A stretch of DNA of 64,000 nucleotides, from contig CAYXQP010000001.1 in NCBI GenBank assembly GCA_964467515.1, positions 1,509 through 65,508 of the forward strand, written 5' to 3'. The notes beneath the pieces are model-generated. The model worked only from the letters and a program-made list of their open reading frames with translations. It searched no databases and had not been told where the DNA came from. Position numbers and translations under genes: made by a program. Source of the stretch: an uncultured Eubacteriales bacterium (GTDB lineage: Bacteria; Bacillota; Sulfobacillia; DYIH01; JBBIPI01). This document shows, piece by piece, positions 8,637 through 34,379 of the stretch. Positions within the stretch are counted from its first letter, which is position 1. Each line of letters begins with the position of its first letter.

Positions 8637-8719
8637 CGCCCCCCGCGCCGCCGCCGCGCCGGCGCGCGCCGTCCCGGTCTCGTTGGTGCCCGCCGTCAGT
8701 GGGCCCGCCGTCAACGCTT

Positions 8720-9841
8720 TCACCCCTCGCCGGCCACTCTGGCCGGCCGGCCGCCCGCCCCGCGGCGCCCGGCCACCCGGCCCGCTATGGCCGCGGCGAC
8801 CCCGGCCAAGGGGAGGATCTCGTCGGCCTGCCCCATCTCCGCCACGGCGCGGGGCATCCCGTAGACGACGCAGGTGGCCTCGTCCTGGGCCAGCACCCAG
8901 CCGCCGGCCCGCCGCAGGAGCATGGCTCCCCTGGCTCCGTCCATGCCCATGCCGGTGAGGATGGCGCAGCCGGCCCGGTCGCCCCACGACCGCGCCACCG
9001 CCGCCAGGGTCACGTCCACCGCCGGCCTCACCCCGTGCTCGGGCGGGTCCAGGCTCAGCTCGACCCGGCCGGCGGCGTCCACCCGCAGGTGGCGGTTCCC
9101 CGGCGCCACCAGGACGTGGCCGTCCGTCAGCACGTCGCCCTCCTCGGCTTCCTTGACGGGCAGGCAGGAGGCCGCGTCCAGGTGCCGGGCCAGGGACGCC
9201 GTGAAGCCGGCGGGCATGTGCTGGACCACCAGCACCCCCGCCGCCAGCCCCTCGGGCAGGGCGGGAACCACCTCCATGAGGGCGGCGGGGCCGCCCGTGC
9301 TGGCGCCGATGACCACTACCTGGCTCAGGCGCCCGCCGGCACGGGGCCGGGCCGCGGGCAGGGGTCCCGCCTCCGCGGCGGCGCCGCCGCACCGCCGGCC
9401 GACGCCGGGGCCCGGGCGGAGGCGCTCCCGCGGAACGCGGGCGGCCACGCGGATCTTCTGCCACAGCTCCTCGGCCACGCGCCCCATGTCCAGGGAGATG
9501 GCGCCCGAGGGCTTGGCCACGAAATCCACGGCTCCCAGGGAGAGGGCGCGCACGGTGGCCTCGGCCCCGGGCCGCGTCAGGCTCGACACCATGACCACGG
9601 GGCGCGGCGCGCGCTCCATGATCCTGGCCAGGGCCTCCAGGCCGTTCACGCGCGGCATCTCCACGTCCAGGGTCACCACGTCCGGGTCCAGCTCCTCCAC
9701 CCGGGCGAGGGCTTCCTCTCCGTCCCTGGCCGTGCCCACCACCACCAGGTCGGCCTGGCGGCTCACCAGGTCCGCGATGACCTTGCGCATGAAGGCCGAG
9801 TCGTCCACCACCAGGACGCGGACGGCGCCCACGGGGAACAC
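8720..9841 (-). CDS. cheB: Chemotaxis response regulator protein-glutamate methylesterase CheB
   Basis: N-terminal receiver domain (VLVVDDSAFMRK...D...LDVEMP) and C-terminal methylesterase (VVIGASTGGPAAL...HMPAGFT). Confidence 0.9.
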   Translation of the reverse strand: MFPVGAVRVLVVDDSAFMRKVIADLVSRQADLVVVGTARDGEEALARVEELDPDVVTLDVEMPRVNGLEALARIMERAPRPVVMVSSLTRPGAEATVRALSLGAVDFVAKPSGAISLDMGRVAEELWQKIRVAARVPRERLRPGPGVGRRCGGAAAEAGPLPAARPRAGGRLSQVVVIGASTGGPAALMEVVPALPEGLAAGVLVVQHMPAGFTASLARHLDAASCLPVKEAEEGDVLTDGHVLVAPGNRHLRVDAAGRVELSLDPPEHGVRPAVDVTLAAVARSWGDRAGCAILTGMGMDGARGAMLLRRAGGWVLAQDEATCVVYGMPRAVAEMGQADEILPLAGVAAAIAGRVAGRRGAGGRPARVAGEG

Positions 9842-9850
9842 CCTCCTTCG

Positions 9851-10216
9851 TCAGCCGGCCTGGACCAGCACCTTGCGCACGGTCTCCAGGACGCGCTCGG
9901 GCTGGAAGGGCTTCACGATGAAGTCGCGGGCCCCCGCCTTGACCGCCTCGATGACCATGGCCTGCTGGCCTAGGGCGCTGCACATGACGATGCGAGCGTT
10001 GGGATCCACCTTCTTGATCTCCCGGACGGCCGCCAGCCCGTCCATGACGGGCATGGTGATGTCCATCATCACCAGTTCCGGCTTGTGCTCCCTGTACCTC
10101 TCCACCGCCTCCTGGCCGTTGCCGGCCTCCACCACCGAGTGCCCCTCGCCGGCCAGGAGCTGCCGGCACCGCAACCGCATGAACTCCGAGTCGTCAACCA
10201 CCAGGATGGTCGCCAC
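9851..10216 (-). CDS. cheY: Chemotaxis response regulator CheY
   Basis: 121 aa single receiver domain (ILVVDDSEFMR...MMDITMPVMDG...K). Confidence 0.9.
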   Translation of the reverse strand: MATILVVDDSEFMRLRCRQLLAGEGHSVVEAGNGQEAVERYREHKPELVMMDITMPVMDGLAAVREIKKVDPNARIVMCSALGQQAMVIEAVKAGARDFIVKPFQPERVLETVRKVLVQAG

Positions 10217-10237
10217 GTTGCACCCCTCCCTTCCGCC

Positions 10238-12340: not shown

Positions 12341-12341
12341 C

Positions 12342-12767
12342 TCACTCCTCCAGCAGGGCGGGCACGTCCAGGAGCAGGACCAACTCCCCCTCCTGGGTCC
12401 TGCCCAGACCCCGCACGAACCGCTCAGCCACGGCCGTTCCCAGGGCGTCGGCGGGTTCGGGCGCCAGGGGGGCCACGGCCAGGACGTCGTCCACCAGCAG
12501 CCCCACCGGCTCGCCCTGCCACTCGCAAACCACGATGCACTGCGCCCGCCCGTCGCCGGCGATCCCCAATTTCTCGGCCAGGCTCACCACGGGGACCACG
12601 CTGCCCCGCAGGTTGATGAGACCGCGCACGCCGGCCGGCGCCCGCGGCACCACCGTGAGCCGGCAGGCCTGGACCACCTCGCGCACGGAGCCCACTCCCA
12701 GACCCACCCGCTCCTCGCCCAGGCAGCAAACGACGAAGCGTTCGCCCGCCGTCGCTACGACCGACAC
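12342..12767 (-). CDS. cheW: Chemotaxis coupling protein CheW (copy 1)
   Basis: A CheW domain starting at the GTG at 12767 (VSVVATAGERFVVCCLGEERVGLGVGSVREVV...). This start overlaps the stop of the upstream cheW and is preceded by GGAGGGGGAG. Confidence 0.85.
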   Translation of the reverse strand: MSVVATAGERFVVCCLGEERVGLGVGSVREVVQACRLTVVPRAPAGVRGLINLRGSVVPVVSLAEKLGIAGDGRAQCIVVCEWQGEPVGLLVDDVLAVAPLAPEPADALGTAVAERFVRGLGRTQEGELVLLLDVPALLEE

Positions 12768-13240
12768 GCCGCCATCTCCCCCTCCAGGGAACCCACGGTC
12801 TCCGCCAGTTCGCCGGCATCCACGGCCAGCAGCCGGTCCAGGTCGAGCAGGAGGAGGATCCGCCCCGCCAGATCGGCCACGCCCCGCACGAAGGCGCGCA
12901 CGTGGGGCGGCACCGTGGCCGGGACCCCCTGCCACACGGACCTCTCGAAGGAGCGAACCTCCACCACTCCGTCCACCACCAGCCCCACCGCCTGCCCGCC
13001 CACGTCCACGATGACCACCACCGGCCGCTCGCCGGCCGGCTCCCGGCCGAGCCGCAGGCGCAGGTCCAGGAGGGGCACCACGCGGCCCCGCAGGTCCATG
13101 ACGCCGAGGACGTGGGGCGGACAGTCGGGCAGGGAGGTCACCCCCTCGAGGAGCCTGATCTCCCGGACGCCCGCGATGCCGGCGGCGTACTCGGCTCCGC
13201 CCACGCTGAAGACCAGGTACTTGTCCTCGCTTTCAGACAT
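12755..13240 (-). CDS. cheW: Chemotaxis coupling protein CheW (copy 2)
   Basis: 161 aa CheW domain (YLVFSVGGAEYAAGIAGVREI...VLGVMDLRGRVVPLLDLR). Confidence 0.85.
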   Translation of the reverse strand: MSESEDKYLVFSVGGAEYAAGIAGVREIRLLEGVTSLPDCPPHVLGVMDLRGRVVPLLDLRLRLGREPAGERPVVVIVDVGGQAVGLVVDGVVEVRSFERSVWQGVPATVPPHVRAFVRGVADLAGRILLLLDLDRLLAVDAGELAETVGSLEGEMAACRS

Positions 13241-15949: not shown

Positions 15950-17896
15950 ATGCAGACCCGCAGGAAAGCCAACACCGTGACGGTTCGTTGGACGAGGCGG
16001 GAACTGGATCTTCCTGCCGACGAGCCCCTCCATCGCTCCCTGGCCGCCGCCGGTGTGCCCGTGGAAAGCCCCTGCGGCGGATTGGGCCGGTGCGGGCGCT
16101 GTCGCGTCCTGTTCCTGACGGGAGCGCCGGCTCCCTCCGAGGCCGACCGCCGCCTGCTGAGCGGTGCCGACCTGGAGGCCGGCTGGCGGCTGTCCTGCCG
16201 CCACCTGCCGCGCGCCGGGGCGGAGATCACCCTGACCCCCTCCTGGACGCCAGCGGCCCTCGCGGCAGCCGGGCCCGGCGGGGCCACCCTGCCGGCAGCC
16301 GTCAAGGGGGCCACGGAGGCGGGGGCCGTCACCGTGCGCTCGCCCCTGGTGGAGAGCCGCACCGTGGTCCTGCCGCGGCCGGCGGCGGAGGAGACGGGCG
16401 GCGACGTGGAGAGGCTGGCCGCCGCCCTGGGTCGGCCCCTCCGGGCGGGTCTCCCCGCCCTGAGGGAAGGCGCCCTCCACCTGCGGCGCGGCGGCGAACT
16501 CCGCTGCGTCCTCGGCGACGGCGAGCTCCTGGCCGTCGCAGGGGCTGCCGGAGCGGGGCAGGCCCTGGGTCTTTGCCTCGACCTGGGCACCACGACCCTG
16601 GCCGGCTACCTCCTGGCCCTGGACACCGGGCACCAGCTGGCGGGCGCCGCCATCCCCAATCCCCAGGCTTCTCTGGGCGCCGACATCATGACGCGCCTCG
16701 GCCACGCCCTGCGGGGAAACGGCCTGGCCGAGCTGCGCCTGCTCCTGGTGGAGGGGGCCAACCGCCTCCTGGAGAGCCTCTGCCGCCAGGCCGAGTCCGA
16801 ACCCGACGCGGTGTGGGCCGTCACGGCCGTCGGCAACAGCGCCATGCACCACCTCTTCCTGGGTCTCCCGGTGGACGGCCTGGCCGCGGCCCCCTATGCG
16901 CCCCTTTCCACGGCGCCCCGCCTGGAGAGGGCCGCCGACCTGGGGCTGGCGTGCCACCCGCGGGGTCTCGTCTACCTGCCGCCCCTCCTGGGCGGCTTCG
17001 CGGGGAGCGACATGGCCGCCGTGCTCCTGGCGACCCGCCCCTGGGAAGCCGAGCGGCCCGTCCTGGTCCTGGACCTGGGCACCAACGGCGAGGTGCTGCT
17101 GGGCCACGAGGGGCGAGTGCTCACCGCCAGCGCCCCGGCCGGACCGGCCTTCGAAGGGGCCGGGCTCTCGGCCGGCCTGAGAGCCGGGCCGGGCGCCATC
17201 ACGGCCGTGGACCTGGCGACGGTGGAGGGGGAGGTGGACCTGACGGTGGAGGTGGTCGGCGGCGGGCCGCCGCAGGGCATCTGCGGGTCGGGCGCCGTGG
17301 ACGCGGCGGCCGCCCTCCTGCGGGCCGGGCTGGTGGACGCCTCCGGCCGGATCGCCGTGGACCGGCTGTCCTCCCTTCCCGCCCGCCTGGCGGCGCGGAT
17401 CAGGCCGGAGGGAGCCGGCGCCGTGACCCTGGCCCACGGTCCCGGCGGACCCGTGCTGCTCACCCAGGGCGACCTGCGCCAGCTCCAGCTGGCCAAGGCG
17501 GCCGTGCGGGCGGCCTGCGACCTGCTCCTGGCCGAGGGAGGCCTGGAGCCGGACGACCTGGGGGCGGTCCTGCTGGCCGGCGCCTTCGGCAACTACCTTC
17601 GCCCGGAGAGCGCCCTCGCCATCGGGCTCCTGCCGCCGGTGCCTCCCGAGCGCGTCGTCCCGGTGGGCAACGCGGCGGGAGTGGGGGCGATGCTCTGCCT
17701 CCTGGACGGGCTGGCCCGGAGCGAGCTGGAGGAGCGGGCGCGGCGGGTCCGGCATGTGCCCCTGGCCACTCACCCCGACTTTCAGGACCGGTTCCTGGCC
17801 GCCACTTGGTTCCCGTCGCCGGGAGGTCCCCCGGCCCCGGCCGACCGGCCGGCCCGGCCCGCCGCGGCGGGAACAACCGGTTCCAAGGGGGGGTGA
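15950..17896 (+). CDS. 2Fe-2S ferredoxin plus ASKHA-ATPase protein of the RACo / DUF4445 family (corrinoid reductive activase-like)
   Basis: 648 aa. The N-terminal plant-type ferredoxin cysteines (CGGLGRCGRCRV...SCRH) are followed by an ASKHA-fold region (LCLDLGTTTLAGYLL...VLDLGTNGEV). Divergent from metF. Confidence 0.75.
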   Translation: MQTRRKANTVTVRWTRRELDLPADEPLHRSLAAAGVPVESPCGGLGRCGRCRVLFLTGAPAPSEADRRLLSGADLEAGWRLSCRHLPRAGAEITLTPSWTPAALAAAGPGGATLPAAVKGATEAGAVTVRSPLVESRTVVLPRPAAEETGGDVERLAAALGRPLRAGLPALREGALHLRRGGELRCVLGDGELLAVAGAAGAGQALGLCLDLGTTTLAGYLLALDTGHQLAGAAIPNPQASLGADIMTRLGHALRGNGLAELRLLLVEGANRLLESLCRQAESEPDAVWAVTAVGNSAMHHLFLGLPVDGLAAAPYAPLSTAPRLERAADLGLACHPRGLVYLPPLLGGFAGSDMAAVLLATRPWEAERPVLVLDLGTNGEVLLGHEGRVLTASAPAGPAFEGAGLSAGLRAGPGAITAVDLATVEGEVDLTVEVVGGGPPQGICGSGAVDAAAALLRAGLVDASGRIAVDRLSSLPARLAARIRPEGAGAVTLAHGPGGPVLLTQGDLRQLQLAKAAVRAACDLLLAEGGLEPDDLGAVLLAGAFGNYLRPESALAIGLLPPVPPERVVPVGNAAGVGAMLCLLDGLARSELEERARRVRHVPLATHPDFQDRFLAATWFPSPGGPPAPADRPARPAAAGTTGSKGG

Positions 17897-21234: not shown

Positions 21235-21978
21235 TCATCTCAGGTAGCGCATGGGGTTGACGGCGCGACCGCCCACCCTCACCTCGAAGTGGACGTGGGG
21301 TCCCGTGCAGCGGCCGGAGCAACCCATCAGGGCTATCAGCTCGCCGCGCTCCACCCGCTGGCCGGCGGAGACGAGGACCCGCGAGTTGTGCCCGTAGAGG
21401 GTCTCGCTGCCGTCCCCGTGGCGGATGACGACGACGCGCCCGTAACCGTAGTACCAGGCGGCCAAGGTGACGACACCCGGGGCCACGGCCCTCACCTCGC
21501 TGCCGTAGCGCCCGGCTATGTCCACCCCCCGGTGGAACTCCCCCCGCCGCCAGCCGTAACGGGACGATATGTAGCCCCGCGCCGGCCAGGGCACGGATCC
21601 CCCCAGGTCCGCCCGCGGCAGGGCACCGGCCGCGTCGACGCCGACCGCCGCCCGCGGACGCCCGCCGGCCGGCTGACGCCTGGCGGGCCTCGCCTCCTCG
21701 GGAGCCGGCACCTCCTCCGGGGAGAGAAACTGAGTCTCCTCGGGCGGGACGATGATGGCGTCGGCGTCGGGCAGAGGCTCCTCCTCTGGCTCGCCGGTGA
21801 GGCCGGGAGCCTCGGCGGCCGCGGCCGGGACGGCCGGAAGGGCAGCCAGGGACGCGCGCGCCAGGGGCCGCTCCGCCAGGAAGGAGAGTTGCTTCGGGAG
21901 AAAGGGGGCATCGTGGAACAGGACCGATACCATGAAGATCAACGATAGCCAGCGGCGGGGGCTCAGCCTGCCAGGCAA
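21235..21978 (-). CDS. M23 family metallopeptidase (LytM-type peptidoglycan endopeptidase)
   Basis: 247 aa with an N-terminal transmembrane segment, a low-complexity linker, and a C-terminal M23 catalytic core (HRGVDIAGRYGSEVRAVAPGVV...YGHNSRV...HVHFEV). Confidence 0.8.
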   Translation of the reverse strand: MPGRLSPRRWLSLIFMVSVLFHDAPFLPKQLSFLAERPLARASLAALPAVPAAAAEAPGLTGEPEEEPLPDADAIIVPPEETQFLSPEEVPAPEEARPARRQPAGGRPRAAVGVDAAGALPRADLGGSVPWPARGYISSRYGWRRGEFHRGVDIAGRYGSEVRAVAPGVVTLAAWYYGYGRVVVIRHGDGSETLYGHNSRVLVSAGQRVERGELIALMGCSGRCTGPHVHFEVRVGGRAVNPMRYLR

Positions 21979-22142
21979 GGAGCCACACTCCTTCTGGAAG
22001 CCTCCGGGGTTAGCTGACGGGTTCGGCAGAGAAGGTGAGCCTACCGCCTGGCGGCGGATTCACCCCACAACCTGGGTCCCCCGTACCCGCGGGTGATGGC
22101 CCACGGGATTCGGCTCTTTTTTTGGTGGGCCTGCCGGCCGTT

Positions 22143-22354: not shown

Positions 22355-22936
22355 TCAGCCGCGGGCCGCCAGCTGGCCCCGGTGGGCGAGCAGGTTTAGC
22401 CTCTTCACGCGGGCGTTGACCGTTTCCCAGTTCACGTTCTTCATGAAGCTCTCGATGTAGGCCTTGCGCGCCGTGCCGTAGTCGAGGAAGTAGGCGTGCT
22501 CGTAGACGTCCAGGATGAGGAGCGGCGACGCGTCCCACACCCCGTCCGAGTGGATATCCGACAGGTAGTTGTGGAGCCTGTGATCGGTCCAGTCGAAGGC
22601 CAGCACCACCCAGCCCCGCGCCGCTATGCCCAGCCCCTTGAACTCCTGCTCCCAGGCCTCATAGGAGCCGAAGTCCTCCTCGATGAGCCGGGCGATCTCG
22701 CCCTGGGGCCTGCCACCGCCGCCGCCCAGGTTTTCGAAGTAGGCCTCGTGCAGGCGGATGGCGTTGGTGGCGAAGACCTCCTCCCGCTTGAGCTCCCGGA
22801 TGAGACTGTAGGTGGCGTTGGCCTCCCCGGGGTTGGCCGTCTCCAGCTTGCTCTCGATCTCGTTGAGCTTGTTGACGTAACCCTTGTACAGAACGTCGTG
22901 GTGCTCGTCGATCTGCCTCTGGGTGAAACCCTCCAT
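22355..22936 (-). CDS. sodA: Fe/Mn-family superoxide dismutase (divergent or short N-terminus)
   Basis: ...QIDEHHDVLYKGYVNKL... corresponds to the HHxKHH region, and the C-terminal DVYEHAYFLDY is the Fe/Mn SOD metal-ligand motif. The ATG at 22936 is the likely start; the ORF extends in frame to 22972. Confidence 0.8.
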   Translation of the reverse strand: MEGFTQRQIDEHHDVLYKGYVNKLNEIESKLETANPGEANATYSLIRELKREEVFATNAIRLHEAYFENLGGGGGRPQGEIARLIEEDFGSYEAWEQEFKGLGIAARGWVVLAFDWTDHRLHNYLSDIHSDGVWDASPLLILDVYEHAYFLDYGTARKAYIESFMKNVNWETVNARVKRLNLLAHRGQLAARG

Positions 22937-23146
22937 GGCTCCCGGCTTGACCTCTCTTGCCTGCCTGGGCAACCCCCATCCCCCCTCCTCTTCCCGGCGG
23001 CCGTCCCGCCGCCTCGCGTCGGCGGGATTGTAGCATCCGCCGGCCGGCTAGTAAAGCTCTGACTTTCTAAACGATGCGGCCGCAAAAGGGCCGGTCCCGT
23101 CGCTCCCCTTGCCCGCCCGCCGGTGCCGGCACGGCGGCATGGCGGT

Positions 23147-24286
23147 CTAATAGCGCAACAGAGCGGCCACCTCGGGGACCTCGGCCGCCTGCTCCTCCCC
23201 GCGGGTGAAGGCTATCTCGGCCCCCTGCTCGCAGGCGGCGTCCACCAGGTACTGGGTCGCCTCCCGGGCCTGCCCCCTCGTCCCGCCCAGGCACCTGAGG
23301 CAGCGCCACGGCTCCCCCTCCGGCGTCACGAAGCCGCAGGCGCACTCGTAACCGCGGAGCCTGACGCCCGTGCGCAGGATCAACTGGCGCACGGCGCCGC
23401 GTTGGAGGGCCGCGCTCACGTCGTGAGGGCCCAGGGCGGCCTGCCCGCGGGCCGCCAGCTCCGCCGCCTGCCGCATCAACGCGGCTCCCCTCTCCTGGCG
23501 GTGCCGTGCCACCAGGTCCAGCACGATGGCCTCCATCTCGGCCGCGGACACGTCGGCGGCCGCGTCCACCTCGCCCAAAAGGCGCCTGGCCCAGTCCTGG
23601 GGCAGGGCCTGGCGGGCGAGGCTCCGCACCTCCGCCGGGCCGGCCAGGACGAGCCACTCGGCGGCGGCTCCGCCGGCCACGTCGGCCAGGGCCCCCACCG
23701 CCTGGCGCACATGGCGCCCCAGATGGTCCAGGATGTGGCGGTCTATCCGGCGCTCCTCCAGGTTGGCCCAGCCCCCTTCCCGCACGTTTTGCGGCACCTC
23801 GTTGCAGAAGCCGCCTCTCTCCACGAGGGCGCCGTCGTGGAGGTGGAGGAAGCGCGCCGTCTGGCGACCCACCGCCAGCACGAGGCCCGGCGGCAGCAAC
23901 CAGGACCGCTCCAGGAGGGGAAGCCGGTACGTGACGCGGTCGGCCACCGCCAGGGGCCGCACGTGGCCGTCCACGGGTAGGACCGACCAGAACCCGTCCG
24001 CCGCGCACGAGAAGAAGGCGGCTCCCTTGGCCGCAAAACCGCGCTGCGTCCGCAGCCAAGCGCCCATCCTCTCCACGTCCTCCCGCAGGGACTGGCGCGC
24101 CCGCCGCGGCAGCGACCCGCCGACCAGCGCCACCTCCTGGCCCAGGGTCCGGAACACGTTGAGATAACCGCGCGCCTGGTCACGGGCCCGATCCAGCGGC
24201 AGGTAGAGGCTCGTCACCAGCAATCCCTCGGGGGCACGGTACCGCTCCAGGGCCTCGAACTCCCCCATCTCCGCCACCACGGCCAT
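23147..24286 (-). CDS. eRF1/Dom34(Pelota)-like protein with a C-terminal Cys4 zinc ribbon (baeRF-type release-factor homologue); function unknown
   Basis: About 380 aa. The N-terminal ...GLLVTSLYLPLD... matches the first strand of the eRF1/Pelota N-domain, followed by a central domain and a C-terminal CACGFVTPEGEPWRCLRCLGG. The ATG at 24286 or 24268 is the likely start. Confidence 0.5.
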   Translation of the reverse strand: MAVVAEMGEFEALERYRAPEGLLVTSLYLPLDRARDQARGYLNVFRTLGQEVALVGGSLPRRARQSLREDVERMGAWLRTQRGFAAKGAAFFSCAADGFWSVLPVDGHVRPLAVADRVTYRLPLLERSWLLPPGLVLAVGRQTARFLHLHDGALVERGGFCNEVPQNVREGGWANLEERRIDRHILDHLGRHVRQAVGALADVAGGAAAEWLVLAGPAEVRSLARQALPQDWARRLLGEVDAAADVSAAEMEAIVLDLVARHRQERGAALMRQAAELAARGQAALGPHDVSAALQRGAVRQLILRTGVRLRGYECACGFVTPEGEPWRCLRCLGGTRGQAREATQYLVDAACEQGAEIAFTRGEEQAAEVPEVAALLRY

Positions 24287-24528
24287 CCCCCCTGCCCACC
24301 CTCCGCCGGCACGCAAGCGTACGCTGCCGAACCGCCACCCTTTCCGCCGGGAAAACATTCTCCCCCCGCGGACCGGTTTCCTCCCACCGGCCGGTCGGTT
24401 TCACCGCAGGGGGAAGGCGGTTGTCTCGCGCAGGCCGCGGGTCACCGGTCCTCGGTCCAAGTCCTGGCCGGGAAGGCCCCGCCGACCTGCGCTAAAATGG
24501 GCTGGACCGCCGGAGGAAGGAGGCCGCC

Positions 24529-27075
24529 GTGCCGTCTTTTCGCTCCCTGCTCGGCAAGCGGGTCCTGGTTTGGGACGGCGCCATGGGGACCATGCTCCAG
24601 GCGGCCGGCCTGCCCGCCGGCGGGTGCCCCGAGATCTGGAACCTGGAACGTCCCGACGCCGTCGCGGCCGTGCATCGCGCTTACGTGGAGGCCGGCGCCC
24701 TCATCCTGGAGACCAACACCTTCGGCGGCAACCGGATCAAGCTGGCTCACTACCGCCTGGCCCACCGCGTGCAGGAGATCAACGGCCGCGCCGTGGCCTT
24801 GGCCAGGGAGGCGGCGGGCGACAGGGCCCTGGTGGCGGCCTCCCTGGGCCCCACCGGCCTCTTCGTGGCCCCGCTGGGCGAGATGAGCTTCGAGGAGGCC
24901 TACGACGTCTTCGCCGAACAGGCGGCCGCCTGCGCCGCGGCCGGGGCCGATCTCTTCATCGTGGAGACCATGGCCGACCTGGGCGAGGCCAGGGCCGCCG
25001 TCCTGGCGGCTAGGGCGACCGGACTGCCGGTGGTGGCCCAGCTCACCTTCGCCGAGGGCGGGCGCACCTTCACCGGCACCGATCCCGAGACGGCGGTGCT
25101 GGTCCTCTCCTCGGCCGGGGCCGAAGTGGTGGGGGCCAACTGCTCCGTGGGCCCGGCCGAACTGGTGCAGGTGGTGCGGGCCATGGCGGCGGTGGGGCGG
25201 GTCCCCGTCAGCGTCCAGCCCAACGCCGGCCTGCCCCGGCTGGTGGGCGGCACGGAGACGGTCTTTCCCCTGGGACCGGAGGAGTTCGGCGCCTGGGGAC
25301 CGCGGCTGGTGGAGGCGGGCGCCAGCCTCGTGGGCGGCTGCTGCGGCACCGGACCCGAGCACATCCGCCGGCTGGCGCAGGCCGTCGCCGGCCTGACGCC
25401 TCCCTGGCCGGGCGCGCGGCACCCCGCGCTCACGGGTCTGGCCTCGCGCACCGGCACCTTCTGGTTTCGGGACGAACACCTCCCCCTCGTCATCGGCGAG
25501 CGCATCAACCCGACGGGCCGCAAGAAGCTCCAGGAGGACGTGGCCGAGGGGCGCTTCCTCCTGGTCCGTGAGGAAGCCCGCCGGCAGGCGGCGGCGGGCG
25601 CCCAGGCCCTGGACGTCAACGTGGGAGTGCCCGGCGTGGACGAGGCGGCCGCCATGCGCCGGGCCGTCCTGGCGGTGCAGGAGGCGGCCACCCTCCCCCT
25701 GTGCGTGGATTCCTCGACGCCGGCGGCCCTGGAGGCAGGACTGGCGGCCACCGTGGGGAAACCCCTGGTCAACTCGGCCTCGGGCGAGGCGGGCCGCCTC
25801 GAGGCGGTGCTGCCCCTGGCCCGTCGCTTCGGGGCCGCCCTCATCTTCCTGGCCCTGGACGACGACGGCATCCCCGCCACCGCCGCCGGGCGCCTGGCCG
25901 TGGCGGAGCGCCTGGTGCGGGCGGCGGAGGAGGCCGGGTTCCCCCGGGAGGACGTCTTCCTGGACTGCCTGGCCATGGCCGTGGGGGCCGACCAAGCCTC
26001 GGCCCTGGAGACCCTGCGGACCATCGGCCTGGTGAGGGAGCGGCTGGGCGTCCGCACCGTCCTCGGGCTCAGCAACATCTCCTTCGGCATGCCCAACCGG
26101 CCTCTCCTCAACGCCACCTTCCTGGCCATGGCCCTGGCCGCCGGGCTGGACGCCGTCATCATGAACCCCCTCGACCAGGCGGCCATGGACACGGTGCGGG
26201 CGGCGCGGGTCCTCCTGCGGCGGGACGCCGACGCGCGCCAGTACGTGGCGGTCATGGCGGCCCGCCCCGAGACGCCCCCGGCCGCGGCTCGGGTGGAGGC
26301 CGCGGCCGCGGAGCCGACCGCCGCGGCACCGGTCGAGGACCGGCCCCCGGCGGTTACCACCGCCGCGGGGGAGCCGGCCGAGGAGCGGCCCCCCGCGGGG
26401 GCGGAGCGGGATCCCCTCGACCAGGCCCTCTACCGGGCCGTCCTGGAGGGCAACCCGCAGGGCATCGTGCCCTTGGTGGAACAAGCCCTGGCCGCCGGCC
26501 GGGACCCCCTGGCCATGCTGAACGGCGTCCTCATCCCGGCCATCGAGGAGGTGGGCCGGCTCTTCGGCCAGGGCATCTACTTCCTGCCCCAGCTCATCCT
26601 CTCGGCCAACGCCATGAAGGCCGCCTTCGAGCGGCTCAAGCCCGAGCTGGCCCGGCGCCAGGCCGCCGAGCCGCTGGCCACCATCGTCCTAGCCACGGTG
26701 GAGGGGGACATCCACGACATCGGCAAGAACATCTGCGCCGTCCTCCTGGAGAACCACGGCTTCCGCGTGGTGGACCTGGGCCGGGACGTCCCCGCGGAGC
26801 GCATCCTGGAGGCCGCGCGCCGCGAGGGGGCGGACATCGTAGGCCTCTCCGCCCTCATGACCACCACCATGCCCCGCATGAAGGAGGTGGTGGATCTCTT
26901 CCGGCGCGAGGGGCTGGCCATCCCCGTCATCATCGGGGGTGCCGCCACCGACAAGGCCTTCGCCGAGGAGATCGGCGCCGCCGGCCACGGCGCCGACGCC
27001 GCCGAGGCGGTCCAGGTGGCGCGGCGCCTCCTCGGCCTCGTCTTTCCCGAGACCCGGACCGTGACCCCCTCCTAG
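24529..27075 (+). CDS. metH: Cobalamin-dependent methionine synthase MetH lacking the C-terminal AdoMet reactivation domain
   Basis: 848 aa made of a homocysteine S-methyltransferase domain, a pterin-binding domain, and a B12 cap plus B12-binding domain (DIHDIGKNI...GLSALMTTT). The GTG start follows GGAGGAAGGAGG. Confidence 0.9.
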   Translation: MPSFRSLLGKRVLVWDGAMGTMLQAAGLPAGGCPEIWNLERPDAVAAVHRAYVEAGALILETNTFGGNRIKLAHYRLAHRVQEINGRAVALAREAAGDRALVAASLGPTGLFVAPLGEMSFEEAYDVFAEQAAACAAAGADLFIVETMADLGEARAAVLAARATGLPVVAQLTFAEGGRTFTGTDPETAVLVLSSAGAEVVGANCSVGPAELVQVVRAMAAVGRVPVSVQPNAGLPRLVGGTETVFPLGPEEFGAWGPRLVEAGASLVGGCCGTGPEHIRRLAQAVAGLTPPWPGARHPALTGLASRTGTFWFRDEHLPLVIGERINPTGRKKLQEDVAEGRFLLVREEARRQAAAGAQALDVNVGVPGVDEAAAMRRAVLAVQEAATLPLCVDSSTPAALEAGLAATVGKPLVNSASGEAGRLEAVLPLARRFGAALIFLALDDDGIPATAAGRLAVAERLVRAAEEAGFPREDVFLDCLAMAVGADQASALETLRTIGLVRERLGVRTVLGLSNISFGMPNRPLLNATFLAMALAAGLDAVIMNPLDQAAMDTVRAARVLLRRDADARQYVAVMAARPETPPAAARVEAAAAEPTAAAPVEDRPPAVTTAAGEPAEERPPAGAERDPLDQALYRAVLEGNPQGIVPLVEQALAAGRDPLAMLNGVLIPAIEEVGRLFGQGIYFLPQLILSANAMKAAFERLKPELARRQAAEPLATIVLATVEGDIHDIGKNICAVLLENHGFRVVDLGRDVPAERILEAARREGADIVGLSALMTTTMPRMKEVVDLFRREGLAIPVIIGGAATDKAFAEEIGAAGHGADAAEAVQVARRLLGLVFPETRTVTPS

Positions 27076-28253: not shown

Positions 28254-31232
28254 CTAGCCGGTGTTGCGCAGTCCCGCCGCGATCCCGTTTATCGTGACCA
28301 GGATGGCGAAGCGCAAACGGTCCAGGTCGGCCTCGCCGCCGGCGGAGGGACACCCCGCCCCCGCGACGGTGCCGGCCGCCTTCGCCTCCGCCTCGCGGTA
28401 GCGGCGGAGGAAGCGGACCTGCAGGTAGCTGAGAGGGTCCACGTACGGGTTCCGCAGGGTGATGGACTGCCGCAAGGCCGGCTCGTTCTCCAGGAGCGCC
28501 CTCTGCCCCGTGACCGCCAGGACGTGCCGCACCGTCCGCTCATACTCCTCGGCCACGGACCCGAACACCGCCGCCCCCAGCCCCGGGTCGTCGGCCAGCC
28601 CGGCGTAGCGCGCGGCTATGTGCATGTCGGCCTTGGCCAGGGCCATCTGGAGGTTGTCCAGCACGGCCCGGAAGAAAGCCCACTCCCGGTACATCCTCCC
28701 CAGCAGCTCCGCCCCGTCCCGCCGGCCCTCGGTCCAGCGGTCGAGAGCCGTCCCGACGCCGTACCAGGCCGGCAGCAGGTGGCGGCATTGGTTCCAGGCG
28801 AAGACCCACGGGATGGCGCGCAGGTCCTCGAACCGGTGGCCCAGCTGCCTGGCCACGGGGCGCGAGCCGATGTTGAGCTCGCCGATGTGCCGGATGGGCG
28901 TCACGGCGAAGAAGTAGCGCAGCCCCGCCTCGTCCTGCCCGAATAGAAAGGCCCGGTAGGCCCGGTAGGCGTGGGCGGACAGCTCGGCCATGGTCTCCTC
29001 CCACTGGGCCGGCGCCGGCTGGCCCGCTCTCCACCCGGCGACGGCCGGGAGGCCCCTGGGTCCGTCGGCCTCCAGGAGCTTGACGGCGGCGGCCCAGACC
29101 ACCTGCTCCAGGCTGCGGAAGGCTATGCCGGGGATGAGGTAGCGGTCGGAGAGGACCTCGCCCTGCTCCGTTATCTTGAGACCCCACCGGGTGGAACCCG
29201 AGGGGAGGGCCATGACGGCGCGCCCCGTGGGTCCGCCCCCTCTGCCCAGGGCCCCGCCCCGCCCGTGGAAGAAGCGCACGCGCACGCCGGCCTCCTCCCC
29301 CAGCAGGAGGAGCCGTTTCTGGACCAGGTAGAGCTCCCAGTTGGCCGTCAGGTACCCGCCGTCCTTGTTGGTGTCCGAGTAACCCAGCATGACCTCCATC
29401 AGGGAGCCGCGGGCGGCCAGGTAGCTGCGGAAGGAGGGAGACCCGAGGAGCGCGGACAGCATCTCCCCGCCCTGCCTGAGGTCGGCCGTGGTCTCCAGGA
29501 TCGGCACCAGGTTAAACCAGCCCAGCTCGCCCGGTCCCCCGAGACCCACGGCGGCGGCCAGGAAGAGCACCTCCAGGCAGTCGCTGGGCTCGTGGGCCAT
29601 GCTCACTATGTACGTGTCCATGGCCTCCCGGCCCAGCTCGGCCCCGGCCGCGCGAAAGAGATCGAAGACCGCCAGGAGCTCCTCGGTCTCCCCGCTCAAG
29701 CCCGACCGGGCGCGGGCCCGCTCGCCCGCTTCCCGGCAAAGTGACGGATCGTCCAGGATCCCCTCCAGCACCCGGCCCCGCCGGGACTCGGGCAGGTCCT
29801 CGTAGTCCGGGCAGACGCCCGCCAGCCTCAGGATCTCGCCTACGACCCGGCCGTGCACCTGGCTGTGCTGGCGGACCTCCAGCGGGACGAGGTGGAAGCC
29901 GAAGAGCCGCACCTGCCGGATGAGCCGGCCCAGGGAACCGCGGGCCAACGCCTGGCCACCGTTGGCCAGCAGGCTTTCCTCCATGACCAGGAGGTCGTCG
30001 AGGAACTCGCGGTGGGACCGGTAGCGGCCTGGCCAGCGCTCCGCGCCGGCCGGTGACGGCGGCGTGGCGGCGGTCACCTCCAGGTTGTGCCGCCGCAGTT
30101 GCTCCAGCCGCCAGCGGATGATGGACAGCTTGCGCCGGTACGGCTCATTCTCGTCCCACCGGACGAAGTCCGGGGGCAGCTCCCCCAGGGACCGCTCGTC
30201 GGCCGCCAGGGAGGCGAGGAGGGCCTCGCTCGCTCCCACCAGGAGTGTGGACTGGCCGTAGCGGGCCATCAGGTGGCTCACCGAGGCCAGGTACTTCCTC
30301 ACGGCCAGGTCCCGTTGGAAACGCAGCGCCTCCCACGTGACCCGCGCCGTCACGTGGGGATTGCCGTCTCTGTCACCGCCCACCCAGCTGCGGAAACGGA
30401 GGAAGGTGGGCAGGGCGGCGCCGTGCCGCGCCAGGCGATCCTCGATCTCGGGGTAGTGGCGGGCCAGTTCCCTCTCCATGGCCAGGTGCACGTCCGGGAG
30501 CACGTCCCACAGGGTCTGGTCCAGGTAGAAGAGGCCCAGCCGCACCTCGTCCTCCGGCTGAAGCCGGAAGGAGCGCACCTCGCTGGTCTGCCACAGGAGG
30601 ACCAGGAGCTCCCGGATCTCGCGCTCGATCTCCTCCAGCTCCTGCGGCGTGACCAGGGGGTTCTCGCGCCGTTCCAGAGCGTCGTAGATGGCCCGCAGCA
30701 CGGCGAGCACCGTCCTCCGCGTGGCCTCGGTGGGATGGGCCGTCATGACCAGTTCCACGGAGAGCCGGCCGAAGAGATCGAGGACCCGGTCGGCCCCCAG
30801 GCCCGCCGACCGGAGGAGGGAGGCTAGGTGGCGAAGGGAGAGGGGCTGGGGCTGGCGGTGCTCCCGGTCGTACTCGCGCTTGCGGCGGACCCGGTGGTGC
30901 TGCTCGGCCAGGTTGACCAACTGAAAGTAAAGCCCGAAGGCCCTGGCCACCTGCAGGGCCGTCTCCTGGTCCAGCTCCTCCACGAAGCCGAGCAGTTCCC
31001 TTTCGGCCGCGGCGTCATAGCCGGCCCGCAACCGACGGGTGGCCAGCCGGACGCGCTCCACGGCTTCGAAGAACCGGTCGCCCCCCTGTTCGCGGAGCAC
31101 CTGTCCCAGCAGCCGGCCCAGGAACTTGACCTCTTCCCGGAGCTTGCGTTGCCTCTCGCGCAACCAGCGCTGTTCGGGATCGGCCCCCGGCCCGGAGGGC
31201 GAGGAACGGGCCTGAGCCTCCAAGCTCACCAT
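28254..31232 (-). CDS. ppc: Phosphoenolpyruvate carboxylase
   Basis: 992 aa with the Ppc motifs VMTAHPTE and FHGRGGALGRGGGP. Confidence 0.9.
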   Translation of the reverse strand: MVSLEAQARSSPSGPGADPEQRWLRERQRKLREEVKFLGRLLGQVLREQGGDRFFEAVERVRLATRRLRAGYDAAAERELLGFVEELDQETALQVARAFGLYFQLVNLAEQHHRVRRKREYDREHRQPQPLSLRHLASLLRSAGLGADRVLDLFGRLSVELVMTAHPTEATRRTVLAVLRAIYDALERRENPLVTPQELEEIEREIRELLVLLWQTSEVRSFRLQPEDEVRLGLFYLDQTLWDVLPDVHLAMERELARHYPEIEDRLARHGAALPTFLRFRSWVGGDRDGNPHVTARVTWEALRFQRDLAVRKYLASVSHLMARYGQSTLLVGASEALLASLAADERSLGELPPDFVRWDENEPYRRKLSIIRWRLEQLRRHNLEVTAATPPSPAGAERWPGRYRSHREFLDDLLVMEESLLANGGQALARGSLGRLIRQVRLFGFHLVPLEVRQHSQVHGRVVGEILRLAGVCPDYEDLPESRRGRVLEGILDDPSLCREAGERARARSGLSGETEELLAVFDLFRAAGAELGREAMDTYIVSMAHEPSDCLEVLFLAAAVGLGGPGELGWFNLVPILETTADLRQGGEMLSALLGSPSFRSYLAARGSLMEVMLGYSDTNKDGGYLTANWELYLVQKRLLLLGEEAGVRVRFFHGRGGALGRGGGPTGRAVMALPSGSTRWGLKITEQGEVLSDRYLIPGIAFRSLEQVVWAAAVKLLEADGPRGLPAVAGWRAGQPAPAQWEETMAELSAHAYRAYRAFLFGQDEAGLRYFFAVTPIRHIGELNIGSRPVARQLGHRFEDLRAIPWVFAWNQCRHLLPAWYGVGTALDRWTEGRRDGAELLGRMYREWAFFRAVLDNLQMALAKADMHIAARYAGLADDPGLGAAVFGSVAEEYERTVRHVLAVTGQRALLENEPALRQSITLRNPYVDPLSYLQVRFLRRYREAEAKAAGTVAGAGCPSAGGEADLDRLRFAILVTINGIAAGLRNTG

Positions 31233-32566
31233 TCCTCCGACAGGTCCAGCTCGCGGCGCAGGGCCTCCACGTCCACGAAGGGACGACCGGCCCGCCTCTT
31301 CTTCTCCTCCATGTTTTCCATGACCCGCAGGAGCTCGCGCAGGCGGGCCCTCCCGTCCCGCGTCTGGCAGGCCTGGCGGGGGGTCAAGCCGCCCAGCACG
31401 GGGGCCGGCTCGTCCACCCAGTCGTGGGAGAAGGGTGGCAGGGCGGACTCTCCTTCACCGAGCCCACCTTTGCCCGCCGTGGCGGGAAGCGCCAGGGAGA
31501 CGCTCTCGAACTCGTCTACCATGTGCCGGGCGGTCGCGGCGAGCACCTCCCCGAGAAGGGTCTTGCCGCGCTCCAGGCGCTCCCGCGACAGGCACTCCAG
31601 CCGGAGTCGCCGTGAGCGGAGAACCAGGGTCCCCAACACCAGCCTGCCCCCCGGCGGGCTTTCCTCCGCGGGGGCGAACCATCTCCAGACACCCTCGCCC
31701 ACCGCCTCCATGTCCGATCGCAGGGCCAGCGCCCGCACCACCTCCTCCGGATCGCCGACCCCGTACCAGGCCCTGGAGAGAAGGCACGCCTCGCCGCTCA
31801 GGGTGCGGAAGCGAGCGGGGCCGAGGGCCTGGAGGCCGCCCACCAAGAGCCGGTGTATCTCGTGGGCCCTGCCGCGGAAGTAATCCTCCCACCCGGCCGC
31901 AGGCCGCCGGCCGCGGAAGCGGGCCAGCCCCTCGGTGAGGCACCGGACGACGGACGCCTTCCACCAGCGGGGCAAGACGAGACCGGCGACGGACAGCCCC
32001 ACCTCCCCGTGGACGGGCAACAGGCGGGTCAGGACCAGGTCGAAACGGTGCAGGTTCCTGGCCGCCACCCTGTCCCAGCACCGCTGCCTGGCGCCCGTGC
32101 ACACATCCTCGAGCAAGAGCTCGCCCTCGTCCGACCGGAGCAGGACCTCGTAAAGCCCCAAGCGGCTCGAGGCCCAAGCGGCGAGGACGGCCCGTTCCTC
32201 CCCGTCCAGGTCCCGGCTCTGGGCCAGGTACCTCTCCAGGACCGTCCGTCCCCTGCCCCCCGGGCGGTAGTCGAAGACGAGCCAATCGAAGAAACGCCCC
32301 ATGCTCCCCTCGTCGTCGGCCAGGGGCAGAGCGTCCCCTCCCCCCCAGAAGGCGTCGAAGGCTCTGGCCAGCGTCTCGTCACCGACGCGGCGGCGGGCGA
32401 AGAGGAAAAGGTGATCCATGAGCCGCTCGGCCAACCGCTGGGACCTATGACGGGAAAGGGGGAGCACCTTGCAACCGACCTCCACGCCATCCACCTCCAC
32501 GGCGGCCACCCGGCCGCAAGGGAACGGGGACGTTTTTCGACAGAGAAGCGGCCACTCCTCTCGCAC
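31226..32566 (-). CDS. Hypothetical protein with a C-terminal helical domain resembling DUF2384 (the toxin-binding domain of Xre/MbcA/ParS antitoxins); translationally coupled to ppc
   Basis: 446 aa. The C-terminal ...PVLGGLTPRQACQTRDGRARLRELLRVMEN... follows the DUF2384 pattern P.LGG.TP.ELL.T..G...V..LL.R...G. Its stop at 31226 lies 1 nt from the ppc ATG at 31232. Confidence 0.6.
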   Translation of the reverse strand: MREEWPLLCRKTSPFPCGRVAAVEVDGVEVGCKVLPLSRHRSQRLAERLMDHLFLFARRRVGDETLARAFDAFWGGGDALPLADDEGSMGRFFDWLVFDYRPGGRGRTVLERYLAQSRDLDGEERAVLAAWASSRLGLYEVLLRSDEGELLLEDVCTGARQRCWDRVAARNLHRFDLVLTRLLPVHGEVGLSVAGLVLPRWWKASVVRCLTEGLARFRGRRPAAGWEDYFRGRAHEIHRLLVGGLQALGPARFRTLSGEACLLSRAWYGVGDPEEVVRALALRSDMEAVGEGVWRWFAPAEESPPGGRLVLGTLVLRSRRLRLECLSRERLERGKTLLGEVLAATARHMVDEFESVSLALPATAGKGGLGEGESALPPFSHDWVDEPAPVLGGLTPRQACQTRDGRARLRELLRVMENMEEKKRRAGRPFVDVEALRRELDLSEEW

Positions 32567-32715: not shown

Positions 32716-33516
32716 TCAGGCACGGGTGCGGAGGATGACCAGGTCCACGCGGCGGTTGCGGGCCCTATTCTCCTCGCTGTCGTTGGGGAAGCGCGGCCGC
32801 CACTCCCCGTACCCGGTGGCGGAGAGCCGCGCCGGCGGAAGACCCTCCCCCTCGGCCAGGTAACGGGCCACCACCACGGCCCGGGCCACCGACAGCTCCC
32901 AGTTGGACGGGTACCTGGCCGTGTTGATGGGTAGGTCGTCGGTGTGCCCCTCCACCGAGATGTCGTTGGGAATGCGGGCCAGGACGGGCGCTATCCGGTG
33001 GAGGATGGCCCGGGAGGCCGGCTTGAGGTCGGCGTAACCCTTCTCGAAGAAAATGAGCTCGGGAAAGCTCACCACCAGCCCCTGTTCCTCCACCGTCACG
33101 GTCACCTTGCCCGCCAGCCCCGCCGCCTGCAGCTCTCTCTGCACGACGCGAGCCACCTCCTGGAGCCGGAGTCCCTCGGCCCGGCGGGCCGGGGAGACGT
33201 CGGGACCGCGGGTTCCCTCCAGGCTGTTGGCCGCGGCGTGCGGCAGCCTGGCCTCGCTATCCACGGGAGTGGGAGACACATCCAGCAGGGAGTTGCTGAC
33301 GTTGGACCGGAGGAAGCTTGACTGGAGGGCCTGGGCGAGCTGGAGGTACTTGGCCTTGTCCATCTGGCTGATGGAGTAGAGCACGATGAAGAAGACCATG
33401 AGCAGGGTGATGAGGTCGGCGTAGGTGAGGAGCCAGCGCATGCTCCCGGCCCCGTCGTGCCCGCCTCCGTGACCACCCTCTTCGTGCGAGACCCCTTTCC
33501 TAGACACCACCATCAC
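32716..33516 (-). CDS. motB: Flagellar motor stator protein MotB (OmpA-like C-terminus)
   Basis: 266 aa with a single transmembrane segment (LLTYADLITLLMVFFIVLYS) and a C-terminal OmpA/MotB peptidoglycan-binding domain. Confidence 0.85.
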   Translation of the reverse strand: MMVVSRKGVSHEEGGHGGGHDGAGSMRWLLTYADLITLLMVFFIVLYSISQMDKAKYLQLAQALQSSFLRSNVSNSLLDVSPTPVDSEARLPHAAANSLEGTRGPDVSPARRAEGLRLQEVARVVQRELQAAGLAGKVTVTVEEQGLVVSFPELIFFEKGYADLKPASRAILHRIAPVLARIPNDISVEGHTDDLPINTARYPSNWELSVARAVVVARYLAEGEGLPPARLSATGYGEWRPRFPNDSEENRARNRRVDLVILRTRA

Positions 33517-33542
33517 CGGGGCGGCCCGCAGCGCTCCCGCAC

Positions 33543-34379
33543 CTAGGCACCGCTCTCACCGGGCTGGGCGGCGGGCGAAGGGCCCGGGGCGGCCTCGGCC
33601 TCCTCCCGCTTCTTCTCCTTCCTCTTGCTGCCGGGGAGAAAGGCCCGCAGCTTCTCCCGCACCATGGCCGGGCTGTCGCCCTTCTGGATGGAGAGCACGC
33701 CCTCGATGATCATCTGCTGGTACTCGCCCAGCAGCCGGCCGTTGTCCTTGAGCTTGTTGGCCACGGGCAACCAGAAGACGTTGGCCGTGGCTATGCCCCA
33801 GAGGGTGGCCAGGAAGGCCATGGCGATGGCGGAGCCCAGCTCGTTAGGATTCTCCAGATTGGAGAGGACGTGGATGAGGCCCATGACGGTGCCGATGATG
33901 CCCATGGTGGGCGCGTATCCGCCCGCCGTCTCGAAGATGGCGGCGCCCGTCAGGAAACGCTTGCGCGCCAGCTCCGCCTTGGTGACGAGCACGGCCTCCA
34001 CCACCTCGGAGTCGGTCCCGTCCACCACCATCTGCAAACCCTGAGCCAGGAGTTCGTCGGAGATGGTGCGGATGTCCTCCTCCAGGGCCAGGAGCCCCTC
34101 CCGCCGGGCCTTCTGCGCCAACCCCACCAGCTTGTCGATGGCCTGGGGCAGGTCACCGCCGGGACGGCGCAGCAACTCGCCGAGGAGGGAGGGGACGCGA
34201 AAGAAGTTGCCCAACCCCACGCTCATGGCCGTGGCGCCGATGGTACCGCCCAGGATGAGGAACACGGCGGAGGGAGAGATGAGCGAGCCGACGGAGCCCC
34301 CCTCCATGGCATTGGATCCGAGAATGGCCACTAGCGCGACGACGAGCCCGACGATTACTCCGAGTTCCAGAGGGACCAC
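33543..34379 (-). CDS. motA: Flagellar motor stator protein MotA
   Basis: 278 aa with four transmembrane segments and the MotA/TolQ/ExbB signature region. Confidence 0.85.
   Translation of the reverse strand: MVPLELGVIVGLVVALVAILGSNAMEGGSVGSLISPSAVFLILGGTIGATAMSVGLGNFFRVPSLLGELLRRPGGDLPQAIDKLVGLAQKARREGLLALEEDIRTISDELLAQGLQMVVDGTDSEVVEAVLVTKAELARKRFLTGAAIFETAGGYAPTMGIIGTVMGLIHVLSNLENPNELGSAIAMAFLATLWGIATANVFWLPVANKLKDNGRLLGEYQQMIIEGVLSIQKGDSPAMVREKLRAFLPGSKRKEKKREEAEAAPGPSPAAQPGESGA

Follow-up and report, generated by a model that had tools for sequence, protein, structure and literature searches.

A family-10 bacterial aeRF1 homologue with a glutamine-less GGW tip loop and its probable role as a Balon-like ribosome hibernation factor

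What does a solitary eRF1-like gene do in a bacterium? The question is raised by a minus-strand gene in a stretch of 64,000 nucleotides from an uncultured Eubacteriales bacterium (GenBank assembly GCA_964467515.1, contig CAYXQP010000001.1, positions 1,509 to 65,508), which is referred to below, at its full length, as the window. A preliminary description, drawn up from the letters alone, had placed this gene by itself between a superoxide dismutase (SOD) gene and metH, and had presented its product as an eRF1/Pelota-like member of the bacterial aeRF1-like (baeRF) families, proposed to act in ribosome rescue or quality control. Our analysis identifies the product as a bacterial aeRF1 homologue with three domains, which belongs to baeRF family 10 and, within that family, to a subtype without the Gln of the catalytic loop. 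We favour, with moderate confidence, the interpretation that it is a non-catalytic, codon-independent and EF-Tu-assisted factor for ribosome hibernation and translation silencing of the Balon type.

The gene can be delimited in two ways:

23147-24358, minus strand: maximal open reading frame (ORF), 403 amino acids (aa), first ATG to TAG stop
23147-24286, minus strand: most likely coding sequence (CDS), 379 aa plus stop, starting MAVVAEMGEF

The longer form is the ORF from which the preliminary description had started; it is present on the minus strand in the list of ORFs, and the two strings quoted from it were located at residues 46-56 (LLVTSLYLPLD) and 339-359 (CACGFVTPEGEPWRCLRCLGG) of the 403-aa ORF. 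Its N-terminal extension of 24 aa is not conserved and is deleted in one relative (L002). The sequence ATGGCGGTGGT at 24286 is kept among relatives together with an upstream GGAGGG, the gene's own ribosome-binding site, which lies ~13 nt 5' of the ATG at 24286. In addition, P0001, the database entry for the protein, has 379 aa and is 100% identical. Together these findings make 23147-24286 the most likely CDS, in agreement with the product of roughly 380 aa given previously, and we preferred M25 to the start of the 403-aa form since the 5' extension is not conserved in relatives. Residue numbers below are those of the 379-aa form unless the 403-aa ORF is named. Other frames across the gene also hold ORFs of 200-330 aa, namely 23067-24059 on the minus strand and 23123-23980 and 23526-24167 on the plus strand; these are artefacts of very GC-rich, stop-codon-poor DNA and are unsupported as genes.

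Membership of baeRF family 10, which bears out the placement made in the preliminary description, was evident from the Pfam scan, in which PF18854 (baeRF_family10) matched residues 159-273 of the 403-aa ORF (window 23540-23884) with 51.1 bits against a gathering score of 27.1 (E = 2.3e-13). The models for baeRF families 2 and 3 and for eRF1_3 matched below threshold. HMMER, run over all 1.84 billion representative sequences, returned 7,504 homologues at E <= 1e-3, of which 1,093 were at E <= 1e-30, which makes this a very large family; all family-invariant residues are present in the window protein. Among NCBIfam models, the sole meaningful matches were two named 'ribosome hibernation factor', for MSMEG_1130 and Rv2629 (E ~1e-12). 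When the single sequence was used to query the PDB sequences, it gave a marginal match to aRF1 (E = 0.49) and none to Balon, and remote matches were recognised with family profiles, one built from 28 sequences and another from type-B sequences (defined below). With the 28-sequence profile the best match was Msmeg1130 (8V9J, 2.4e-38), followed by Psychrobacter urativorans Balon (8RD8, 7.6e-31), archaeal aRF1 (4AF1, 1.2e-22) and Rv2629 (8V9K, 1e-18), all of them across practically the whole chain. The type-B profile again had Msmeg1130 as its best match, over the full length (1.3e-28).

This relatedness was borne out by the predicted structure. An AF2 model of the window protein, made without templates, had a predicted local distance difference test score (pLDDT) of 88.9 and a predicted template-modelling score of 0.84. 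It superposes over the whole chain on ribosome-bound Balons, with Foldseek TM scores of 0.81-0.85 to 8V9L and 8V9J, and the similarity to Balons over the whole chain is far higher than that to release factors. Its whole-chain matches were exclusively structures of the aeRF1 superfamily, with no unrelated fold among them. Matches to Pelota spanned only ~130-150 residues, and neither an Sm-like N-domain with loop A nor a whole-chain match to Pelota/Dom34 was found. Of the earlier label 'eRF1/Pelota-like', the first half therefore stands and the second does not. The accompanying view of these families as largely uncharacterised rescue or quality-control factors is outdated as well, since work from 2024 onwards has established baeRF-type proteins as ribosome hibernation factors: by far the closest solved structures are those of the hibernation factors Balon, Msmeg1130 and Rv2629 (Helena-Bueno et al. 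2024, PMC10901736), and a Synechocystis homologue has also been shown to be a hibernation factor (bioRxiv 10.64898/2026.07.03.736309).

The three-domain aeRF1 architecture of family 10 is complete in the window protein:

23897-24286, minus strand: N-terminal eRF1-type domain, residues 1-130, bearing the SLYLPLD strand
23453-23896, minus strand: middle RNase-H-like, GGQ-type domain and long connecting helix, residues 131-278
23735-23797, minus strand: tip loop and next helix, VPQNVREGGWANLEERRIDRH, as placed by alignments and the family census
23150-23452, minus strand: C-terminal Pelota/eRF1_3 (L7Ae-like) domain, residues 279-379, with the family-wide AALLRY end strand
23291-23344, minus strand: four-Cys zinc-ribbon insert, C-A-C...C-L-R-C, residues 315-332, within the C-terminal domain

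In the N-terminal domain, the SLYLPLD strand is shared with aRF1, where it reads SLYIPP. The NIKS motif was not found anywhere in the window protein, and the YxCxxxF strand is not preserved in its alignment to aRF1. In place of NIKS, the equivalent loop has the sequence VGGSLPRR, and it varies among members of the subfamily. Codon reading is not to be expected, since both NIKS and YxCxxxF are absent.

The middle domain had been described as showing no GGQ. Indeed, GGQ is absent throughout the protein, but its position is not blank: it reads GGW (G171-G172-W173, window 23768-23776, minus strand), in the tip loop EGGWANLEE, which contains no Gln. The pLDDT of this loop is 61-68, as expected of a flexible tip. 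A loop census of the ~200 nearest cluster representatives revealed two subtypes of family 10, for which 'type A' and 'type B' are our own names, and conservation was counted in 58 type-A and 85 type-B representatives. The type-A loop, PGxH(D/K)QGGW(S/A)QAR(Y/F)QRH, has an invariant Gln two residues past the Trp, and its spacing exactly equals that of aRF1 GGQSQRRYERI. The type-B loop, VPxxV(R/K)EGGWxG(Y/L)EE(K/R)RIxRH, lacks Gln and is three residues longer than that of aRF1; the window protein is of type B. Burroughs and Aravind (2019, PMC6514570) described family 10 as keeping a conserved catalytic-loop Gln and as potentially active. This Gln is not found in the window protein and is invariant in the type-A half only, so that, going by the alignments, their description fits type A and not the window protein. 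The tip of Rv2629, TAGWNGY, belongs to the same loop type as that of type B ([GA]-G-aromatic-x-G/N-Y/L, aRF1 plus three residues). In P. urativorans Balon the loop is ~20 residues longer, whereas that of the window protein is short, like that of Rv2629.

The zinc ribbon noted previously is present and conserved, although it is not C-terminal: 47 residues follow it, which make up the final helix and strands of the C-terminal domain. The ribbon lies within the Pelota-type domain, as described for family 10, whose insert is either a zinc ribbon or a degenerate two-strand form. Its Cys residues (C315, C317, C329 and C332, CxC...CxxC) are conserved in 100, 96, 100 and 93% of the type-B representatives, respectively; all four are present in 76 of the 85 type-B and 43 of the 58 type-A representatives, and the pLDDT of the region is 93-95. 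In the alignment, the ribbon shares its site with the zinc insert of aRF1 (4AF1; C..H..C..C). At the same site, Balon, Msmeg1130 and Rv2629 carry a hairpin of similar length without Cys, which Burroughs and Aravind read as a degenerate zinc ribbon (PMC6514570). In Balon, the beta-hairpin of the C-terminal domain shapes the interaction with EF-Tu (PMC10901736). The window protein thus carries the Balon-type insert in a zinc-binding four-Cys form, and a contact of this insert with EF-Tu is suggested by analogy.

Fold, motif status and conservation of the window protein, as described above, are direct observations. They agree with a Balon-type factor in the absence of NIKS and GGQ, in the insert of the C-terminal domain and in the aeRF1-like fold, which comes nearest to Balon, Msmeg1130 and Rv2629. 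Balon-type occupancy of the ribosomal A site has been found for the Psychrobacter, mycobacterial and Synechocystis proteins, despite identities of 14-30%. Balon-type factors are defined by mRNA-independent binding to the A site, together with EF-Tu, and by inhibition of translation. By homology to these proteins, the window protein is predicted to bind the A site, to use EF-Tu, to be non-catalytic and to be regulated by stress. In the mechanism that we propose, it would enter the A site under stress or in stationary phase as a mimic of a tRNA or release factor; its N-domain would lie at the decoding centre but would read no codon. The GG-Trp tip and the Arg/His-rich helix would dock on 23S rRNA near the peptidyl-transferase centre (PTC) without releasing the peptide, and the zinc-ribbon insert of the C-terminal domain would face the translational GTPase EF-Tu. 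The outcome would be a reversible block of translation, in which idle ribosomes are protected.

Several observations weigh against this interpretation. Identity to the solved Balons amounts to 14-23%, and the equivalog cutoffs of both NCBIfam models were missed by a wide range (48.6 against 480 bits for NF052288, the MSMEG_1130 family, and 44.8 against 320 bits for NF052289, the Rv2629 family); judged from these scores, its relation to the Balon proteins is one of distant homology, and it is not an equivalog. With the type-B profile, archaeal aRF1 (1.3e-24) scored almost level with Msmeg1130, again over the full length, and since aRF1 scores nearly as well, the type-B subtype looks like an evolutionary intermediate. 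The tip loop of the window protein is short and unlike the long lasso loop of the P. urativorans type, and the protein retains traits of release factors that the solved Balons have lost, namely an intact, tightly conserved Gly-Gly tip and the four-Cys ribbon. The HP dipeptide was not found anywhere in it, and the loop aligned to THREHPAND of Balon reads PLDRARDQAR. Msmeg1130 (NADPTQ) and Rv2629 also lack HP at the aligned position, which is why this motif may be specific to Psychrobacter. No conserved operon partner emerged from the neighbourhoods of ~10 relatives, and linkage to SOD was seen only in close relatives. Finally, there is no experiment on record for any family-10 protein.

The most serious challenge to the Balon-type interpretation comes from the tip loop itself. 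In the manner of ArfB, Vms1 or aRF1, the protein could be an active, codon-independent peptidyl-tRNA hydrolase that uses its GGW loop to free the nascent chain of stalled ribosomes. The Gly-Gly dipeptide occupies exactly the GGQ position; across the type-B representatives, G172, the second Gly, is conserved in 96%, and position 173 holds an aromatic residue (W, F or Y) throughout. Furthermore, loop length is tightly constrained within type B, which according to Burroughs and Aravind is typical of active families (PMC6514570), and the sister type A has an invariant GGW-SQ with the same spacing as GGQSQ of aRF1. In bacterial release factors the catalytic role of the Gln has been assigned to its backbone amide and not to its side chain (PMC6742477), and the loss of Gln is therefore no proof of inactivity, a further point that counts against a purely hibernating role. 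On the other hand, the tip of the window's clade reads GGWAN without Gln, which occurs in type A only, and the bulky Trp in its place would need to fit the PTC pocket. The first Gly (G171) is Gly in ~71% of the 85 type-B representatives and Ala or Ser in ~29%. Substitutions of a GGQ Gly of the Ala type inactivate genuine release factors, and chains of an AAQ mutant of eRF1 were among the PDB matches of the 28-sequence profile. The ~29% of Ala or Ser at the first Gly therefore argues against family-wide selection for catalysis. In addition, the same loop type is found in Rv2629, which has been described as a hibernation factor without GGQ function, and the structure of the whole chain is much nearer to Balons than to release factors. 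We consequently regard a hydrolase as unlikely for the window protein, although still deserving of attention. Type A, with Q-GGW-SQ and exact aRF1 spacing, may be more promising as a bacterial hydrolase of the aeRF1 type that has stayed active.

A position between these two is conceivable, and we give it less credence still: type-B proteins of family 10 could be a mechanistically distinct intermediate between aRF1 and Balon, acting as a Gln-independent peptidyl-tRNA hydrolase, as a zinc- or redox-gated hibernation factor, or as both. Type B, unlike the solved Balons, combines a PTC-directed Gly-Gly-aromatic tip with an intact four-Cys ribbon at the GTPase-facing insert. If true, a Gln-independent hydrolase would give bacteria an aRF1-derived, EF-Tu-delivered rescue factor, and redox gating would mean that oxidation or demetallation of the ribbon switches binding to EF-Tu or to the ribosome. 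The SOD gene downstream in the window and a disulfide reductase gene that overlaps the family-10 gene of one relative (L009, see below) would fit the redox-gated version.

Quite improbable in our judgement is a Pelota/Dom34-like, non-catalytic rescue factor, which would split or recycle ribosomal subunits with a GTPase or ATPase partner. The protein belongs to the same superfamily, has a Pelota-type C-terminal domain and, like Pelota, has neither a catalytic Gln nor codon-reading motifs. A gene for an FtsH-type AAA protease 77 bp downstream of the relative P0005 (L005 1147-4339) hints at quality control, and a Pelota-like analogy for Balon and RRF has been raised in a preprint (10.64898/2026.07.03.736309). 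Splitting is disfavoured by the eRF1-type N-domain and by the lack of a conserved partner gene in the ~10 neighbourhoods examined. Moreover, bacteria lack ABCE1, and the solved bacterial relatives stabilise the 70S ribosome rather than splitting it (PMC10901736).

A genuine stop-codon-dependent class-I release factor of the archaeal type, supplementing RF1 and RF2, is all but excluded: some databases do label relatives 'peptide chain release factor subunit 1' (others leave them unnamed), and the type-B profile aligns with archaeal aRF1 over its full length, but the protein has none of NIKS, YxCxxxF and GGQ, its NIKS-equivalent loop differs between members of the subfamily, and the score for TIGR03676 (aRF1_eRF1) is 14.8 bits against a cutoff of 234.7. 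Hardly credible at all is a spurious ORF or decaying pseudogene, for although long ORFs are frequent in all frames of the window's DNA (72-76% GC), so that openness of the frame alone proves no gene, this one has a third-position GC content (GC3) of 0.92, a ratio of nonsynonymous to synonymous substitution rates (dN/dS) of 0.24-0.38 against two syntenic relatives (76% and 66% identity), a Pfam match above threshold and a very large family, which mark it as real, besides intact syntenic orthologues, a confidently predicted fold and every family-invariant residue.

The surroundings of the gene comprise the following features:

24529-27075, plus strand: metH, divergent from the baeRF gene, GTG start
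24287-24528, no strand assigned: intergenic region between metH and the baeRF gene, which holds the latter's ribosome-binding site
23027-23055, minus strand: promoter-like site TTTACT-17-TGcTACAAT with extended -10, between the baeRF stop and SOD
22355-22972, minus strand: Fe/Mn-SOD gene, downstream of the baeRF gene on the same strand, gap of ~175 bp

With metH divergent and SOD preceded by a promoter-like site of its own, the gene does stand alone, as had been proposed. The promoter-like site of SOD is AT-rich amid DNA of ~72% GC and is the only sigma-70-like site in the region (one found, 0.0 expected from shuffles). Its place between the baeRF stop and SOD would allow the SOD gene to be transcribed alone. 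No sigma-70-like promoter was recognised in the region upstream of the baeRF gene, and no convincing terminator was found between the baeRF and SOD genes. We judged a baeRF-SOD operon unlikely in view of SOD's own promoter-like site; read-through is possible, as there was no terminator. Small palindromes upstream of the baeRF gene were dropped as candidate regulator sites because they are not conserved in relatives.

Gene neighbourhoods of relatives were sampled by exact-protein look-up, about a dozen in all; a search for related loci with one family alignment returned four, none of them from the species of the window. The order metH, baeRF gene, SOD gene and M23 peptidase gene is kept in two close relatives, which reflects shared ancestry and is no independent evidence, and distant relatives have variable neighbours, many of them related to stress. 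The type-B relative P0031 (L016/L017 5001-6904), which is Gln-less and has the loop FAGWHGL and a three-Cys ribbon, overlaps by 4 bp a gene for long HPF (Ribosomal_S30AE plus S30AE_C); this is the clearest operon-level tie of family 10 to ribosome hibernation seen here. The type-A relative P0024 (L018 2836-5576) has a divergent sigma-70 factor gene on one side and a BON/OsmY-like gene on the other. In an Acidobacteriota metagenome-assembled genome (MAG; L009 4545-7086), the family-10 gene begins within the 3' end of a gene for a flavoprotein disulfide reductase (Pyr_redox_2 plus Pyr_redox_dim). Elsewhere, some relatives stand alone between a radical-SAM gene and an RND pump, and others, one case each, have as neighbours a diacylglycerol kinase gene, a B12-binding/carboxyltransferase operon, or a methyltransferase gene with a BrxC/D-like pair nearby. 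One relative, at 31% identity, comes from a MAG labelled Thermaerobacter marianensis. SOD, FtsH and disulfide reductase are thus scattered redox and quality-control neighbours without a consistent pattern. Genes for baeRF and Balon proteins have been reported near stress genes and RaiA/HPF (PMC10901736, PMC6514570), and the sporadic HPF and stress neighbours, together with SOD in the window, fit this published pattern. Within the 64-kb window itself, tblastn revealed neither an HPF/RaiA gene nor a baeRF paralogue elsewhere, and PADLOC gave no match and hence no tie to a known defence system.

Some further observations concern metH and the rest of the window. Within the intergenic region, only the block CCTGCGCTAAAATG at 24486-24499 (plus strand), ~30 nt 5' of the GTG start of metH, is unchanged across all three relatives, and it looks like the -10 region of metH. 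With 848 aa, MetH of the window is a short form; its counterparts in the syntenic relatives consist of S-methyl_trans, Pterin_bind, B12-binding_2 and B12-binding only, with no C-terminal reactivation domain. A RACo-type corrinoid reductive activator (Fer2, RACo middle and RACo C-terminal domains) is encoded at 15950-17896 on the plus strand, ~6.6 kb from metH. On the other side of SOD, a c-di-AMP (ydaO/yuaA) riboswitch at 21983-22125 on the minus strand (90.7 bits against a gathering score of 38) lies directly 5' of the M23 peptidase gene (21235-21978, minus strand) and is the sole Rfam match in the window. A 446-aa ORF at 31226-32566 (minus strand; GC3 0.88), just downstream of the phosphoenolpyruvate carboxylase gene (28254-31232), has no Pfam match at 1e-5, and its syntenic counterpart in relatives is annotated DUF7986. 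The context clusters at 916-5966, 7295-13240, 32716-34379 and 42338-47177, all on the minus strand, hold ftsQ-ftsA-ftsZ followed by a sigma-70-family gene (a sporulation-like order), cheX/cheB/cheY/cheA/cheW, motAB and System-I cytochrome c maturation genes (ccmA/B/C/E/F-like). As far as gene content can tell, these genes and the c-di-AMP riboswitch point to a motile organism that is Bacillota-like and of high GC.

Family 10 was described computationally in 2019, and the superfamily experimentally in 2024. For annotation, 'Balon-like (baeRF family 10) ribosome A-site factor' would be an upgrade and is better than 'peptide chain release factor subunit 1'. The solved members of the Balon superfamily are all without the Gly-Gly tip and the zinc ribbon. 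Since type B keeps both and has no characterised member, it offers a good opportunity to learn how release factors turned into hibernation factors, and whether peptidyl-tRNA hydrolysis remains in some of the bacterial aeRF1 homologues.

How the window protein relates to known systems can be seen by moving from its sister subtype to its closest solved relatives. Type-A members (such as P0004 and P0024; from Chloroflexota/Thermomicrobia-like and other bacteria) share with it the Pfam family, the domains, the ribbon and GGW at an identity of ~25-28%. They differ in their invariant Q-GGW-SQ with aRF1 spacing, where the type-B pattern V[RK]EGGWxG[YL]EE[KR]RI is without Gln and three residues longer. 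Archaeal aRF1 (such as 4AF1 and 3AGK) is the presumed ancestral type and aligns in full length with the type-B profile. Common to both are the SLY(L/I)P strand, the Gly-Gly tip, a zinc-binding insert at the same site of the C-terminal domain and the C-terminal (I/L)LR(Y/F) strand. However, aRF1 terminates translation and has NIKS, YxCxxxF and GGQ, all three of which the window protein lacks. Among the hibernation factors, P. urativorans Balon (8RD8, 8RDV, 8RDW) is the most distant, with 14% identity and a match to the type-B profile in the N-domain only (4.6e-8). It makes contact with A1492/A1913 through an HP motif in the N-domain, and it has a long lasso loop around A2602 and a bL27 trap in the middle domain, besides a beta-hairpin without Cys. 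In the window protein, by contrast, there is no HP dipeptide, the GGW loop is short and the insert is a zinc ribbon. Mycobacterium tuberculosis Rv2629 (8V9K), an A-site binder that lowers translation 15-fold in vitro (PMC10901736), is closest in the tip loop: in TAGWNGY as in EGGWANL, the Gln position is taken by an aromatic residue and the length is that of aRF1 plus three. Rv2629 differs in having Ala for the first Gly and no zinc ribbon, and its identity to the window protein is 18-19%. Mycobacterium smegmatis Msmeg1130 (8V9J, 8V9L), at 20-23% identity, has the tip R-A-G-Q-M-R and an insert without Cys where the window protein has GGW and the four-Cys ribbon. Both proteins lack NIKS and a functional GGQ, both carry the insert at the same site of the C-terminal domain, and in both the three domains are arranged with respect to each other as in the ribosome-bound form.

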